This document shows positions 2,038 through 61,030 of a stretch of DNA of 64,000 nucleotides, in pieces. The translations under genes were made by a program, and so were the position numbers. The stretch's first letter is position 1, and every line of letters begins with the position of its first letter. The notes beneath the pieces were generated by a model, which had not been told where the DNA came from, made no database searches, and saw only the letters and a program-made list of their open reading frames with translations. The DNA comes from Candidatus Yanofskybacteria bacterium. GTDB taxonomy: Bacteria; Patescibacteriota; Minisyncoccia; 2-02-FULL-40-12; IGHO2-01-FULL-4-A. The DNA lies in assembly GCA_016185545.1 (NCBI GenBank), contig JACPNJ010000003.1, forward strand, positions 2,567 through 66,566, given 5' to 3'.

Positions 2038-2165
2038 CCGCCAATTACTAGTTACCGGTTATCTAGTTACTAGTTACTAGATTTGTATATCTAAAGGGTG
2101 GAAACTGATATCTCGCAAAATTAAAGAGGGTAATTTTTTGTTCGCCCCCGCTAAGCGGGGTTAAG

Positions 2166-5100
2166 GTGTTTTTGTGTTCGCACGCTACGCCCATGCGGAA
2201 GATTCTCTCAAAATACGCCCCCGATACTTTTGAACCGCCAAACTTGGTTCAGGTCCAGCTTGATTCCTATCAATGGTTTTTGGATGTGGGATTAAAAGAG
2301 TTGTTGAATGACATCTCCCCCATTGAAGACTGGACCAGTAAGGAATTGGAATTAAGATTTTTGGATTTTAGATTGGAAGAACCGAAGTTCAGCGAACGCA
2401 TTGCCAGAGAAAAAAATATAACTTATGAAGCACCGCTCCGCGTAAAAATTTCTCTTAAAAACAAAAAAACCGGCAAGACTGACGAGCAGGAAATTTATCT
2501 TGCCGACTTCCCAGTAATCACTCCGCGCGGCACATTTGTAATTAACGGGGTAGAGCGAGTTGTGATTTCACAACTTATTAGAAGCCCGGGCGCATTCTTT
2601 TCATTGTCTCGTTCAAGCCGTTTCAAACGGCTTTTTGGCGCTAAAATCATTCCTTCGCGTGGCGCTTGGCTTGAGTTTGAAACCGAATCAAGCGGCGTCA
2701 TGTCCGTCAGGATTGACCGGAAAAGAAAAATTCCAGCAACCTCTGTTTTGAGGGCTTTCGGCGTAGGTAAAGATGAGGAAATTAAAAAACTGTTTGAGGA
2801 TGTAGATACAAATTCGGAAATGAAATATGTCATTTCTACCATCGTTGCCGATGCCGCAAGCAGTCAGGATGAAGGATTGATTGAGATGTACAAACGTATC
2901 CGCCCGGGCGACCCGGCTACCGTTGATAACGCACGACAGATGATAAACAACATGTTTTTCAATTTTTCACGATACGATCTTTCACGTGTAGGACGCTACC
3001 GCATGAATCAACGCTTCCAAAAGAATTATACTTTAGACGAAAAAAACAGGATATTAAAAGTAGAAGACATTATAGATGTAATGCGCGAAATTATCCGGCT
3101 GAACAACGATCCTTCGGCTCAACCGGACAACATTGACCATTTGGGCAACCGCCGCGTCAAAACTCTCGGGGAATTACTGCAAGACAAATTGAGATTGTCT
3201 TTTGCCAGAATGGAAAGAATCATCAAGGATCGCATGAGCACGCTAGATATAGATGCCATCGTTCCGGGCCAACTTATTAATTCTCGTCCATTTGTCGCTG
3301 CCGTTAAGGAATTTTTTTCGTCCGGCCAGCTTTCGCAATTTATGGATCAAGTTAATCCGCTTGCCGAGCTTGAACACAAACGCCGGCTGTCGGCTCTCGG
3401 ACCGGGCGGGCTTACAAGAGAAAGAGCAAGCTTTGAAGTACGCGATGTGCATCCATCCCATTATGGAAGAATCTGCCCCATCCAAACTCCGGAAGGTCCG
3501 AATATCGGACTGGTTGGACATCTGTCACTACACGCAAAAGTATCGTCGCTCGGATTCATACTCTCTCCTTATAGAAAGGTGACAAAAGGAAAAGCAACTG
3601 AACAAATTGATTATTTGGACGCCACTGAAGAAGAAAGATATATTGTTGCTCATGCCGGCGCTCAATTGGATGACAATGGTAGATTCATGGAATCCAAGAT
3701 TCCTGCCAGAGTCAAAGGCGAACCGGATTTAGTTACGCCGGACAAAATAGATTACATAGATGTTTCTCCCAAACAGCCTTTTTCAGTTGCGACCTCTTTA
3801 ATTCCTTTTCTTGAAAATGACGATGCTAACCGCGCCCTGATGGGTTCAAATATGCAGCGCCAGGCCGTACCAATTATCTCTCCGGAAGAACCGATTATCG
3901 GCACCGGATTGGAAGATAAGGTCGCCAGAGATTCGGGCATGATGCTAATCGCGAACGAGTCGGGCGTAATCGAGGAAGTGGACAGTTCCAGTATTACAAT
4001 AAAAACCATCAAAGGAGAAAAAATAAGATATGACCTGCTGAAATTTAACAAATCCAACAGTTTTACGGCTATCAATCAACGACCAATAGTATCATCGGGA
4101 CAAAAAATAAAAAAGGGCGATGTTCTGGCTGACGGGCCAGCGACCAAAAACGGTGAATTGGCTTTGGGCCGCAATTTACTCGTCGCCTTTATGTCATTTG
4201 AGGGGGCCAATTTTGAAGACGCGGTAGTGCTTTCAGAAAAGCTGGTGAGAGAAGATCTTTTCACGTCAATCCACATTGAAGATTATTCCATAGACGTGCG
4301 AGAAACCAAGCTCGGTCCGGAAATCACGACTTATGATATCCCCAATCGTTCGGAAGAAAAACTTAAAAATTTGGATCCCGACGGTATTGTACGCATTGGC
4401 GCTGAAGTCCGTTCACAAGATATTCTGGTCGGTAAAATATCACCGAAAGGCGAAAGTGATCTGACTGCGGAAGAAAGATTGTTGCGGGCAATATTCGGCG
4501 AAAAATCACAAGACGTAAAAGATACGTCACTAACGTTAGACTACGGCAAGGTTGGACGCGTTGTCGACGTACATATATTTTCTAGAGATCAAGGCGATAA
4601 ATTACCGGCTGGGGTTATCAAAACCATTCAAGTGTCAGTCGCACAAATGAGAAAAGTCCAGGTAGGAGATAAGTTAGCCGGCAGACACGGTAATAAAGGT
4701 GTTATTTCAATGATATTGCCGGAAGAGGACATGCCATACCTGCCTGACGGCAAGCGTGTTGATATGATTTTGTCGCCGCTTGGCATAATCTCACGCATGA
4801 ATATCGGCCAAGTTTTAGAAACGCATCTTGGCTGGGCGGTATCAAAGCTTGGCTACAAAGCCGCGGTACCGGCAATGGGTGGCGCGACGGAAGAAATGAT
4901 AAAGAAAGAATTAAAGCTGGCCGGATTGCCGGAAGATGGAAAAATTTATGTTTACGACGGCCGCACCGGCGAAAAGTTCCACCAAAAAACCACCGTCGGA
5001 GTCATCTACTTTATGAAGCTGATGCATATGGTTGAAGACAAAATACATATGCGTTCAATCGGACCGTATTCGCTCATTACCCAACAGCCACTCGGTGGCA

Positions 5101-5345
5101 AAGCGCAGTTCGGCGGCCAAAGATTCGGAGAAATGGAGGTTTGGGCACTGGAAGGTTATGGTGCTGCGCACACATTGCAGGAAATGCTGACGATTAAGTC
5201 GGATGACGTTCAGGGACGCGCCAAAACATACGAAGCAATAGTGGAGGGAGAAGAAATTAGAGCACCCCATCTGCCTGAATCATTTAAGGTATTACTATCG
5301 GAAATTAAGGGGTTGGGACTAAATATAGAATTAAAGGAAATATAA
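2166..5345 (+). CDS. rpoB: DNA-directed RNA polymerase subunit beta (possible true start at ATG 2193)
   Basis: 1059-aa ORF with canonical RpoB blocks (QLDSYQWFL, NIGLVGHLS, RQAVP, GEMEVWALEGYGAAHTLQE); an upstream hairpin gcccccgctaagcggggtt may be an attenuator. Confidence 0.97.
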   Translation: MFLCSHATPMRKILSKYAPDTFEPPNLVQVQLDSYQWFLDVGLKELLNDISPIEDWTSKELELRFLDFRLEEPKFSERIAREKNITYEAPLRVKISLKNKKTGKTDEQEIYLADFPVITPRGTFVINGVERVVISQLIRSPGAFFSLSRSSRFKRLFGAKIIPSRGAWLEFETESSGVMSVRIDRKRKIPATSVLRAFGVGKDEEIKKLFEDVDTNSEMKYVISTIVADAASSQDEGLIEMYKRIRPGDPATVDNARQMINNMFFNFSRYDLSRVGRYRMNQRFQKNYTLDEKNRILKVEDIIDVMREIIRLNNDPSAQPDNIDHLGNRRVKTLGELLQDKLRLSFARMERIIKDRMSTLDIDAIVPGQLINSRPFVAAVKEFFSSGQLSQFMDQVNPLAELEHKRRLSALGPGGLTRERASFEVRDVHPSHYGRICPIQTPEGPNIGLVGHLSLHAKVSSLGFILSPYRKVTKGKATEQIDYLDATEEERYIVAHAGAQLDDNGRFMESKIPARVKGEPDLVTPDKIDYIDVSPKQPFSVATSLIPFLENDDANRALMGSNMQRQAVPIISPEEPIIGTGLEDKVARDSGMMLIANESGVIEEVDSSSITIKTIKGEKIRYDLLKFNKSNSFTAINQRPIVSSGQKIKKGDVLADGPATKNGELALGRNLLVAFMSFEGANFEDAVVLSEKLVREDLFTSIHIEDYSIDVRETKLGPEITTYDIPNRSEEKLKNLDPDGIVRIGAEVRSQDILVGKISPKGESDLTAEERLLRAIFGEKSQDVKDTSLTLDYGKVGRVVDVHIFSRDQGDKLPAGVIKTIQVSVAQMRKVQVGDKLAGRHGNKGVISMILPEEDMPYLPDGKRVDMILSPLGIISRMNIGQVLETHLGWAVSKLGYKAAVPAMGGATEEMIKKELKLAGLPEDGKIYVYDGRTGEKFHQKTTVGVIYFMKLMHMVEDKIHMRSIGPYSLITQQPLGGKAQFGGQRFGEMEVWALEGYGAAHTLQEMLTIKSDDVQGRAKTYEAIVEGEEIRAPHLPESFKVLLSEIKGLGLNIELKEI

Positions 5346-5400
5346 GAATATGTCCACACGCAGCAAGCGTTAGCATAGCGAGCATGGTAACAAAGACGTA

Positions 5401-60266: not shown

Positions 60267-60470
60267 ACTAGTATTATACTAAACCATATAGCGTTTGCCA
60301 AATGATATCAAAAAATACACCTAAACCTTTTGATAAAAATATTAAAGAAGCTTCGTCCGTCTTAGCAGATACGAGCAATTTGAACTCGGGATTCTATGGC
60401 GTGGGAAAAACCCACAACCTCCCCGCGGGGAGGTTGTGGTTTTTAATCAAAATTAAAAATTAACTGACTG

Positions 60471-60848
60471 TTAGACGCCAAAGAATGCACCCGTAATCAA
60501 AGCCGCGGCCGTCCTCAATATAACACCTACGCCAAGTACTACTGCCGCACCTATTATACCGTTAAGTATGGCACCCCTGGCTTCTTCTGCTTTTTTAGCA
60601 TCACCGCCGGCAGTCATGTATTTAATGCCACCCCAAATAATGTAAATTACCGCGATTATTATACCGATAAATATCATGAAGTTACCGATTCTTTCAATCA
60701 GGCTTTCGATTCTAGCTATCGTCCAAGGAGAACCAGGACCGATTGGATCCGGAAACGGATCAAGGGCCGGCGCCGCCAAAGACATAAACGGCAACAATAA
60801 TGCAGTTACTGGAGACACAACTTTACCGATTTTCTTTAAATATTTCAT
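60471..60848 (-). CDS. VirB2/TrbC-like pilin-module protein (signal peptide plus hydrophobic helix - AG..M..GG.. - Lys-rich loop - hydrophobic helix)
   Basis: IIIAVIYIIWGGIKYMTAGGDAKKAEEARGAILNGIIGAAVVLGVGVIL; paralogous module in the next three genes. Confidence 0.45.
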   Translation of the reverse strand: MKYLKKIGKVVSPVTALLLPFMSLAAPALDPFPDPIGPGSPWTIARIESLIERIGNFMIFIGIIIAVIYIIWGGIKYMTAGGDAKKAEEARGAILNGIIGAAVVLGVGVILRTAAALITGAFFGV

Positions 60849-61030
60849 AAAACACCTCCTTTACTTGGTTGTTAGTTGCTAGTTTCTGGTTACTAGTTAA
60901 ATTCTGGAAAACCAAAAACTAAAACTTCTCAACATTTTATAAATAAATTCTTTGAATTAAATTCAAGAAATTAGGCGGGTAATTATCTGCTACCATGCTC
61001 GGCTCGCCATGCTCACCTGTGCGTAGACAG

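Follow-up and report, generated by a model that had tools for sequence, protein, structure and literature searches.

CTAG-rich heptanucleotide arrays and an IVP-encoding 23S rRNA intervening sequence in a Candidatus Yanofskybacteria contig

The stretch of Candidatus Yanofskybacteria DNA analysed here (64,000 nucleotides of contig JACPNJ010000003.1, hereafter the window) carries nine dispersed CTAG-rich blocks. These are tandem arrays of a 7-nt unit, and two of them, in inverted orientation, enclose a gene of family PF05635 (23S_rRNA_IVP, hereafter IVP) in an intervening sequence (IVS) at helix 9 of the 23S rRNA gene. On balance, we think it probable that the blocks are the arms of this IVP cassette together with derivatives that lack its open reading frame (ORF), and that the element is mobile and is rendered harmless by RNase III-type excision of the double-stranded RNA (dsRNA) stem.

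Heptad arrays, the helix-9 intervening sequence and its copies

A preliminary description of the window had listed the nine blocks as a dispersed repeat family. All nine were recovered where it had placed them and their dispersal stands, but their 7-nt period, the PF05635 gene within the IVS and the nature of the ORF-less blocks as copies of its arms had been missed. Tandem Repeats Finder (TRF) resolved the blocks into period-7 arrays with a CTAG, CTGG or CCAG core and a consensus unit of TTACTAG or AACYAGN. The spacing CTAG-N3-CTAG was observed 14 times against 0.22 expected from Markov shuffles, and three C[TC][AG]G motifs at 7-nt spacing 21 times against 0.1 expected; in the histogram of CTAG-to-CTAG distances the peaks are 7, with 14 cases, and 14, with 6. 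When all unit types were counted, the window held 17–18 period-7 arrays and the shuffles 0.1–0.5, with 0–6 arrays in the window for each other period within 4–12. The blocks had also been called stop-dense, which holds arithmetically for any 7-mer with CTAG in at least three tandem copies. CTAG arrays were found as well in four independent ENA assemblies of one close relative (L082–L085), and they are therefore no assembly artefact.

The arrays occur mostly as inverted pairs and fold to RNA stems of 25–35 bp, forming an imperfect duplex. Each arm comprises about 4–5 heptads; in the sense RNA, the form is YURGUUU in the 5' arm, whose end is CUGGUAAA, and AAACYAG in the 3' arm. CTGG, CCAG and CCGG freely replace CTAG within the arrays, giving G.U pairs. 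The helix-9 IVS is made up as follows:

22317–22359, minus strand: 5' arm of about five heptads (CUAGUAG, CUGGUUU, CUGGUUU, CUAGUUU, CUGGUAA); its end, CUGGUAAA, immediately precedes the start codon of IVP
21960–22313, minus strand: IVP gene in the hairpin loop, 117 aa, PF05635 23S_rRNA_IVP (Pfam E = 1.7e-31)
21928–21975, minus strand: 3' arm with heptads AACUAGC, AACUAGU, UACCAGA, AACUAGC and UACUAGA

This 409-nt insert sits in the helix-9 hairpin of the 23S rRNA, at the tip of the helix and at a known IVS site (Rfam LSU model positions ~152–177; in blastn, between 131 and 175 of the E. coli gene). That an inverted pair forms its closing stem, as first described, was confirmed by folding: arms 22317–22359 and 21928–21975 pair over 22 + 6 bp, and the IVS as a whole has a minimum free energy of −136.9 kcal/mol (z = −7.3). 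The IVP protein scored 109 bits against a Pfam cut-off of 33.8; it is a four-helix bundle homologous to Avd, with a weak Pfam bAvd match, and it matches PDB entries 2GSC and 2RLD, which have five chains each. Its gene is the only PF05635 gene in the window, lacks a Shine-Dalgarno sequence and is under purifying selection (pN/pS = 0.16 against L082, with pS = 0.158). By its architecture the insert is a classical 23S rRNA IVS, of the kind that contains S23p and is excised by RNase III (PMC4990558).

The other CTAG arrays of the window are ORF-less:

18785–18868, minus strand: complete ORF-less copy with two inverted heptad arrays, in the 23S rRNA gene at ~E. coli 1854/1887 (blastn against rrlH), helix-68 region
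15154–15190, minus strand: solo 5'-arm-like array forming a small hairpin, in a 323-nt 23S insertion at ~E. coli 2577; aligns with the IVS 5' arm
2041–2090, plus strand: solo array of 3'-arm type in the leader that precedes rpoB; aligns with the IVS 3' arm
23446–23481, minus strand: mini-hairpin or solo arm that overlaps an MS-channel gene (23477–24160) at its stop codon; aligns with the IVS 3' arm
24181–24215, minus strand: degenerate hairpin directly 5' of the MS-channel gene's Shine-Dalgarno sequence; with its one CTAG, the weakest of the family
50056–50132, plus strand: two-array hairpin filling the rpmI-rplT intercistronic spacer
60862–60905, minus strand: solo array of 3'-arm type just 5' of where a T4SS-pilin-like gene (60471–60848) has its Shine-Dalgarno sequence

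Their kinship with the IVS is clearest in the helix-68 region. The 5' arm at 18785–18868 is identical to the IVS 5' arm at 38 of 42 positions, and the match takes in the CTGGTAAA..TTTA junction found in the IVS ahead of the IVP start codon; the hairpin thus looks like a cassette from which the ORF was deleted. It folds at −56.5 kcal/mol on the sense strand (z = −10) and at −31.8 on the antisense strand, since the A/G differences between its arms become G.U pairs on the sense strand only. Among the three arrays that align with the IVS 3' arm, 60862–60905 is the best match (36/42 identical, including the pre-arm GTTTT), and it has no stable fold alone. A sense-strand advantage was also seen at 15140–15205 (−18.4 against −8.6), 24170–24225 (−16.7 against −8.5) and 50050–50140 (−30.7 against −27.5). 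No Rfam family matched the array hairpins; the search returned only sub-threshold miRNA-precursor look-alikes, at 18782–18869 and 18976–19170.

Five of the nine blocks fall within the 23S rRNA gene. Elsewhere the bias towards gene boundaries noted in the preliminary description proved strong. By our own ORF calls, 7 of the 11 array loci outside the rRNA gene have an intergenic share of 84% or more, against 12.4% for that sequence as a whole. An eighth (46855–46907) counts as intergenic once an over-extended ORF start is set aside, and the binomial test on 8 of 11 loci gave p = 7e-6. The identified flanking genes bear out the positions claimed for the block in the rpmI-rplT spacer and for the one upstream of the T4SS-pilin-like genes. 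The ORF preceding the first block (1774–2037) had been called TsaB-like, which is plausible by eye but has no Pfam match.

Protein genes of the window share ~82–85% nucleotide identity with L082–L085, and the 5' region of the 23S rRNA gene shares 96%. The helix-9 IVS is kept in the relative; its stem is conserved in L082–L084, where arm length is identical, and the 5' arm is identical in L083 and L084. Against the relatives, the arms differ by 1 change in ~77 nt, while synonymous sites of the IVP ORF are 15.8% different. On the sense strand of the rRNA, the lone arm change (A to G, in the 3' arm) replaces a U-A pair by U.G. The site of the 23446 array is also occupied in L082 and L083, with units that have diverged (substitutions and small indels against L082), the block at 24181–24215 is absent from L082, which has a different GC hairpin at the site, and the array of 2041–2090 is absent at the orthologous site of L002, where both flanks are conserved. 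An insertion hairpin of the rRNA, ~190 nt long and with GAGCTCACCTTAAA as terminal inverted repeats (21413–21636), is also absent at L082:5741–5763, although the rRNA flanking the absent insert is 100% identical to that of the window; L082 has a different hairpin at E. coli ~270.

IVP cassettes in other genomes

The IVP protein belongs to a clade whose genes are found with CTAG/CTGG arms at other sites in the candidate phyla radiation (CPR), at 59–94% identity; the homologues traced to contigs had 59–75% identity. All eight CPR cassettes examined have arms of CTAG/CTGG type or of a CTAAG variant, and their insertion sites differ. They include the following:

L172: cassette within the 23S rRNA gene, helix-25 region
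L171, 10364–10498: cassette directly 5' of tRNA-Gln
L086, 6354–6471: cassette directly 5' of tRNA-Gln
L087, 6357–6492: cassette directly 5' of tRNA-Lys
L174: cassette inside a conjugation-like gene cluster
L173: cassette ~1 kb from the 23S rRNA gene, on the opposite strand

The cassettes in L086, L087 and L171 end a few to ~13 nt from the 5' end of a co-oriented tRNA gene, and this adjacency in three CPR genomes suggests a preference for stable-RNA precursor transcripts. ORF-less CTAG arrays are also present in L171 and L173. Duplex stability favoured the IVP sense strand in five of the eight cassettes, was equal for both strands in two and favoured the antisense strand in one. The exception is L173, where the nearby rRNA gene runs opposite to IVP, so that a read-through transcript of the rRNA operon would be antisense to IVP. 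Small intergenic ORFs with a PDDEXK_3 domain lie ~1.2–2.8 kb from two of these cassettes (L171:8381–8785 and L174:6832–7248). The one in L174 adjoins period-9 arrays, and such an ORF may be another small gene linked to array hairpins.

Scanning metagenomes with an IVP profile gave at least 80 loci among the matches listed; they were distant relatives at 35–53% identity and not close ones, which suits a test of generality but hardly a comparison of strains. Drawing on these listed matches, 86 non-redundant IVP loci were tested, with control ORFs taken from the same loci. When the upstream flank was aligned with the reverse complement of the downstream flank, a score of at least 30 was reached at 60 of the 86 IVP loci and for 12 of 400 control ORFs, and nearly all of the inverted arms so aligned were tandem arrays. 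An array of period 5–10 was present in 123 of 164 IVP flanks (75%) and in 79 of 564 control flanks (14%); 71 of the flank arrays in the IVP set had period 7 and 43 had period 8. Their copy number was confined to a narrow range, with a median of 4.3, an interquartile range of 3.6–5.0 and a mode of 4. The units vary from locus to locus, with AG[GT] common in the upstream-arm units across phyla.

Some units recur in unconnected contexts. One Patescibacteria metagenome-assembled genome (MAG) has (TTAGGGA)13 near rpoB (L070:3915–4013), and the TAGGGAT unit of that array flanks an IVP gene in L140, an unrelated metagenome contig. Units of AAGTCGA type form ORF-less arrays in L020 and an IVP flank in L131.

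The 23S rRNA gene and other arrays of the window

The window has a G+C content of 43%. Its ORFs include short, unsplit rpoB (1059 aa) and rpoC (1227 aa); the closest matches of rpoB are two Patescibacteria/CPR MAGs (89% and 82% amino-acid identity), and identity to Parcubacteria/Yanofskybacteria MAGs is 70–74%. Rfam placed the 23S rRNA gene on the minus strand at 17267–22508 and the 5S rRNA gene at 14378–14495; no 16S rRNA gene was found in the window. The Rfam LSU model, which ends at 17267, reaches only two-thirds of the 23S gene. Alignment with E. coli rrlH by blastn gave a true span from ~22500 to ~14570 on the minus strand, or ~7.9 kb, with at least 14 insertions. The final ~450 nt of the E. 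coli gene align at 15441–14568, past a 1.9-kb insert that holds two LAGLIDADG_2 ORFs (16566–17174 and 15582–16193). A segment resembling a group I intron lies at 18202–18733 and scored 39 bits, under the 50-bit Rfam cut-off.

Other insertions in the 23S gene are long, near-perfect hairpins (21107–21262, 19714–19825, 18960–19169 and 14645–14811). The arms of several are also short-period arrays, of AAATTCA, AAAGTTCAT and AAATTTA types, so that material of this kind makes up much of the extra rRNA. At 18063–18147, in a conserved part of domain IV, 42 nt are perfectly duplicated in tandem (2.0 copies, 100% match) and E. coli ~1965–1996 aligns two times; the duplication could be real, beside the intron, or could stem from the assembly.

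The window holds further heptamer families, namely (AGGTTAC)n with (ACCTGAA)n, (AATTTTG)n and (GAAATCC)n. The AGGTTAC/ACCTGAA family contains no CTAG and is a sister family of identical architecture:

61402–61491, minus strand: sister-family hairpin between pilin-like genes, with (UYAGGUN)n and (GUAACCU)n arms and a 'GGUAAG-AAAAAUU' loop as in the CTAG hairpins
63664–63758, minus strand: second copy of the sister-family hairpin (TRF, fold)

The first of these folds at −35.6 on the sense strand (61395–61495; z = −5.7) and shares the sense-strand advantage of the CTAG hairpins.

Heptad arrays also lie in frame within essential protein genes. TsaD contains (AATTTTA)n and a perfect (AGGTTAC)4 at 52268–52300 and 52491–52520, and ValS contains (GAAATCC)4.6 at 54928–54959. 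These arrays occupy variable loops, and the same two loops in TsaD homologues from other CPR bacteria hold array-like peptides that vary in length. A perfect (AATTTTG)5 at 46862–46896 is 12 nt from the 3' end of tRNA-Arg(CCU) (46908–46981, minus strand); a serine recombinase gene (43893–45446) lies ~1.4 kb from this array, beyond a gene resembling that of the CCA-adding enzyme. At 11930–12002 there is a period-8 hairpin (CGAATATA / ATTCGTAA) that is 81% identical to L002:4752–4823. The latter fills the rpoB-rpoC spacer of L002, a related MAG, and its window counterpart is at a different locus, the window's own rpoB-rpoC spacer being occupied by a different, GC-rich hairpin. A full-length match to the Rfam LOOT RNA (40950–41073, plus strand; 69.5 bits against a 46.4-bit cut-off) was found upstream of a family-2 glycosyltransferase gene.

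Explanations considered and known systems compared

Under the cassette explanation, the helix-9 IVS is the complete element, its arms enclosing the PF05635 gene, and IVP gene and CTRG arms behave as one unit that changes place, in other Patescibacteria to heavily transcribed stable-RNA precursors. The data show the anatomy, the kinship of the copies, their association with IVP, the differing insertion sites, the constancy of the arms and, in the CPR clade, a preference for stable-RNA contexts; cleavage by RNase III, the means of movement and any role of IVP are inferred. Most likely, the arms would pair in the precursor transcript and RNase III would cut the resulting long dsRNA, the analogy being the IVSs of Salmonella, Leptospira and Coxiella. 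Such a cut would remove the insert without damage to the host RNA and might free the IVP message; the repeated units could let the arms zip together in several registers. ORF-less copies would settle where an extra RNA hairpin is tolerated (rRNA helix tips, 5' and 3' untranslated regions, intercistronic spacers), either as processing or stability hairpins or as neutral remnants.

Several results weigh against this account. No RNase III gene was identified in the window, and IVP is not recognisable as a transposase or nuclease. At the three presence/absence sites no clean empty site or target-site duplication could be read, because the 'empty' sites hold other small hairpins. The regions 2030–2100 and 60855–60915 fold no better on the transcribed strand than on the other. 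Stem stability at 61 distant IVP loci favoured the sense strand in 33 cases and the antisense strand in 25 (p = 0.70); a strand bias is accordingly claimed for the window and the CPR clade only, and selection at the RNA level is not demonstrated in general. Finally, the in-frame heptad arrays in TsaD and ValS indicate that a purely DNA-level process that generates arrays also operates.

On a rival view, the arrays would be purely mutational by-products, heptanucleotide repeats made by replication slippage, like the 7-nt repeats that are in general excess in bacteria, and kept wherever they are harmless, with no relation to IVP or to RNA processing. Period 7 dominates across unrelated unit families in the window and at other CPR loci, arrays are lineage-specific at orthologous sites, and the TsaD and ValS arrays lie in variable loops at which other CPR bacteria have peptides of variable length. 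The copy number of the Coxiella heptamers varies between strains (PMC4990558), and PMC4692102 and PMC4679880 cite a polymerase-footprint idea. Nevertheless, one unit family and its arm-loop junctions recur at no fewer than nine loci, with a consistent inverted-pair architecture and with arm divergence far under the synonymous rate of the enclosed ORF. The arms accompany one IVP clade to differing sites in different genomes, arrays are 5-fold enriched in IVP flanks over controls, and their copy number is narrow (interquartile range 3.6–5.0) and not long-tailed. Slippage by itself accounts neither for the arms and junctions that the copies share nor for the gene that travels with them, and we consider it fairly unlikely as the whole explanation.

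Alternatively, the arrays might be operators, in which each heptad is bound by one subunit of an oligomeric nucleic-acid-binding protein that controls translation or stability of the neighbouring gene. A pentameric IVP would be the most attractive reader, or proteins of S1, Csp or CsrA type as proposed for TAACTGA. The arrays at 24181–24215 and 60862–60905 end a few nucleotides 5' of Shine-Dalgarno sequences, copy number is typically 4–5, the PDB relatives of IVP have five chains per entry, and S23p has been described as a homopentameric toroid (PMC4990558). IVP is also homologous to Avd, an accessory protein of diversity-generating retroelements (PMC10053308), and upstream-arm units have an AG[GT] core in common across phyla. 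However, most arrays are predicted to be paired with a partner arm, the shared core could reflect common descent of the cassettes, and copy number has its mode at 4 rather than 5, so that five subunits with one heptad each are not singled out by the data. We give this possibility a small but real chance.

A third alternative is a mobile element that acts at the DNA level, whose arms serve as terminal inverted repeats or single-stranded DNA hairpins for a transposase or recombinase encoded elsewhere, in the manner of REP/RAYT (repetitive extragenic palindromes and their transposases) or of miniature inverted-repeat transposable elements (MITEs), any RNA structure being incidental. The dispersed copies, the different cassette loci of different genomes, the presence/absence variation among relatives and the want of a general sense-strand bias would all fit, as would the 81% identity of the period-8 hairpin at 11930–12000 to that of the L002 rpoB-rpoC spacer. 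L082 also has a weak Y1_Tnp gene close to the locus. Yet no transposase was found within or beside the window cassette, nor near the copies in the window, and no target-site duplications were seen; moreover, the G.U asymmetry tracks the host transcript in six of the eight CPR cassettes. An element of this kind is decidedly unlikely in our judgement.

Two further readings came from the preliminary description. The arrays do form hairpins at gene boundaries, which had invited the proposal that they are Rho-independent terminators or transcriptional insulators at gene ends, but this is very improbable: none is terminator-like, their stems are AU-rich with no U tract, and termination within the rRNA gene, which contains five of the blocks, would be lethal. 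Canonical terminators with a GC-rich stem and a T tail are found apart from the arrays (for example 60412–60439); 37 sites in 46–64 kb are terminator-like, and 0 of them are arrays. A separate, conserved GC hairpin whose tail is T-rich follows the block at 23446–23480. The suggestion of a footprint or decoy of CTAG-specific restriction-modification or of another CTAG-targeting system is barely credible and was rejected as far as 64 kb allows. The position list does place 31 of the 139 CTAGs (22%) in arrays covering ~0.8% of the window, and elsewhere CTAG is below its composition expectation. Overall, though, CTAG stands at 0.58 of the base-composition expectation and at 1.15 of the maximal-order Markov expectation for the window, so the avoidance that had been presumed is nothing special beyond trinucleotide context. 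Pfam and NCBIfam searches of ~48 window ORFs found no methyltransferase or restriction domain, cognate or otherwise; CTAG, being interchangeable with CTGG, CCAG and CCGG, is not the invariant of the arrays, and other IVP cassettes have unrelated units.

Three old loose ends meet in one element of the window: the nature of the short uncharacterised inserts of CPR rRNA genes, the excess of 7-nt repeats in many bacteria and the role of the widespread orphan IVP. The link between IVP and arrays holds statistically over the 86 unrelated IVP loci, and, if causal, it gives a testable model in which IVP binds heptads, RNase III cuts the stem, and each genome has master and derivative copies. For annotation of CPR genomes, array hairpins account for much 'extra' rRNA, and heptad arrays can occur inside essential protein genes. 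Speculatively, and with little confidence, one may go further and suppose that PF05635 proteins and inverted repeats of 7–8 nt arrays constitute one widespread class of element, which would insert into heavily transcribed RNA genes and spacers and be harmless through excision of its own dsRNA stem. A pentameric IVP might then recognise ~4–5 heptads as a processing, protection or mobility factor, with ORF-less arrays as non-autonomous progeny. Were this true, the heptanucleotide repeats of cyanobacteria, Beggiatoaceae, Xanthomonas and CPR bacteria would have a common origin and the orphan IVP family a function.

Short, dispersed, intergenic inverted repeats that are co-transcribed and form hairpins, as here, are known from the Correia elements of Neisseria and from the REP sequences and bacterial interspersed mosaic elements (BIMEs) of enterobacteria, and Correia hairpins have been reported as RNase III substrates. 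Those elements have defined target duplications or a cognate RAYT transposase. To our knowledge, they are not made of tandem short-period units and have no master copy that bears an IVP-type ORF. What the window shares with REP sequences and MITEs is the dispersal of copies that are identical at 36–38 of 42 positions and their presence or absence at orthologous sites (2041 in L002, 24181 in L082). With Avd of the diversity-generating retroelements, IVP shares its family and four-helix-bundle fold (PMC10053308); unlike in those systems, there was no Pfam reverse-transcriptase domain in the ~48 window ORFs scanned, and no pair of template and variable repeats was noticed around the window IVP gene.

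The resemblance to bacterial heptanucleotide repeats is closer. Such repeats are over-represented in bacteria, and polymerase slippage has been proposed for them, according to work cited in PMC4679880 and PMC4692102. The STRR sequences of cyanobacteria, TAACTGA in Beggiatoaceae (PMC4679880) and GGGAATC in Xanthomonas and Nostoc (PMC4692102) likewise have a 7-nt unit in 2–6 copies, a strong intergenic bias, often with a position just 5' of start codons, genome-specific units and occasional inverted pairs. The TAACTGA repeats of Beggiatoaceae are located just upstream of start codons and occur in 169 direct sets and 1 inverted set (PMC4679880). Stop-rich units are common to both (TAACTGA there, TAACTAG here), but the unit found here (TTACTAG or AACYAGN) differs from TAACTGA and GGGAATC, and the arrays of this Patescibacterium are mostly paired hairpins with IVP as a coding partner.

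In CPR bacteria, 23S rRNA genes have been found to contain many insertions, among them LAGLIDADG-encoding group I introns, ORFs of IVP and, at IVS sites, many short inserts that have no ORF and are uncharacterised (PMC11270868). The word 'repeat' occurs 0 times in that survey, which describes neither a heptad-array make-up of the inserts nor their kinship with intergenic repeats. In the literature searched, a general link between IVP and tandem arrays is foreshadowed only by the Coxiella paper, with heptamers beside S23p as a local curiosity (PMC4990558). The closest known systems are the S23p/IVP IVSs of Leptospira, Coxiella burnetii, Brucella and relatives of Xanthomonas, which are likewise inserted at a 23S helix tip, with a stem of ~28 bp and a PF05635 ORF in the loop. 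In Coxiella, tandem GACAGAT heptamers of strain-variable copy number lie upstream of S23p, and the IVS is cut by RNase III (PMC4990558). Cleavage is predicted here by likeness to these elements, and the IVS of the window differs from them in that both of its arms are wholly heptad arrays, that copies of the arms with no ORF are scattered over other rRNA helices and mRNA spacers, and that the same cassette lies beside tRNA genes, outside rRNA, in related genomes.

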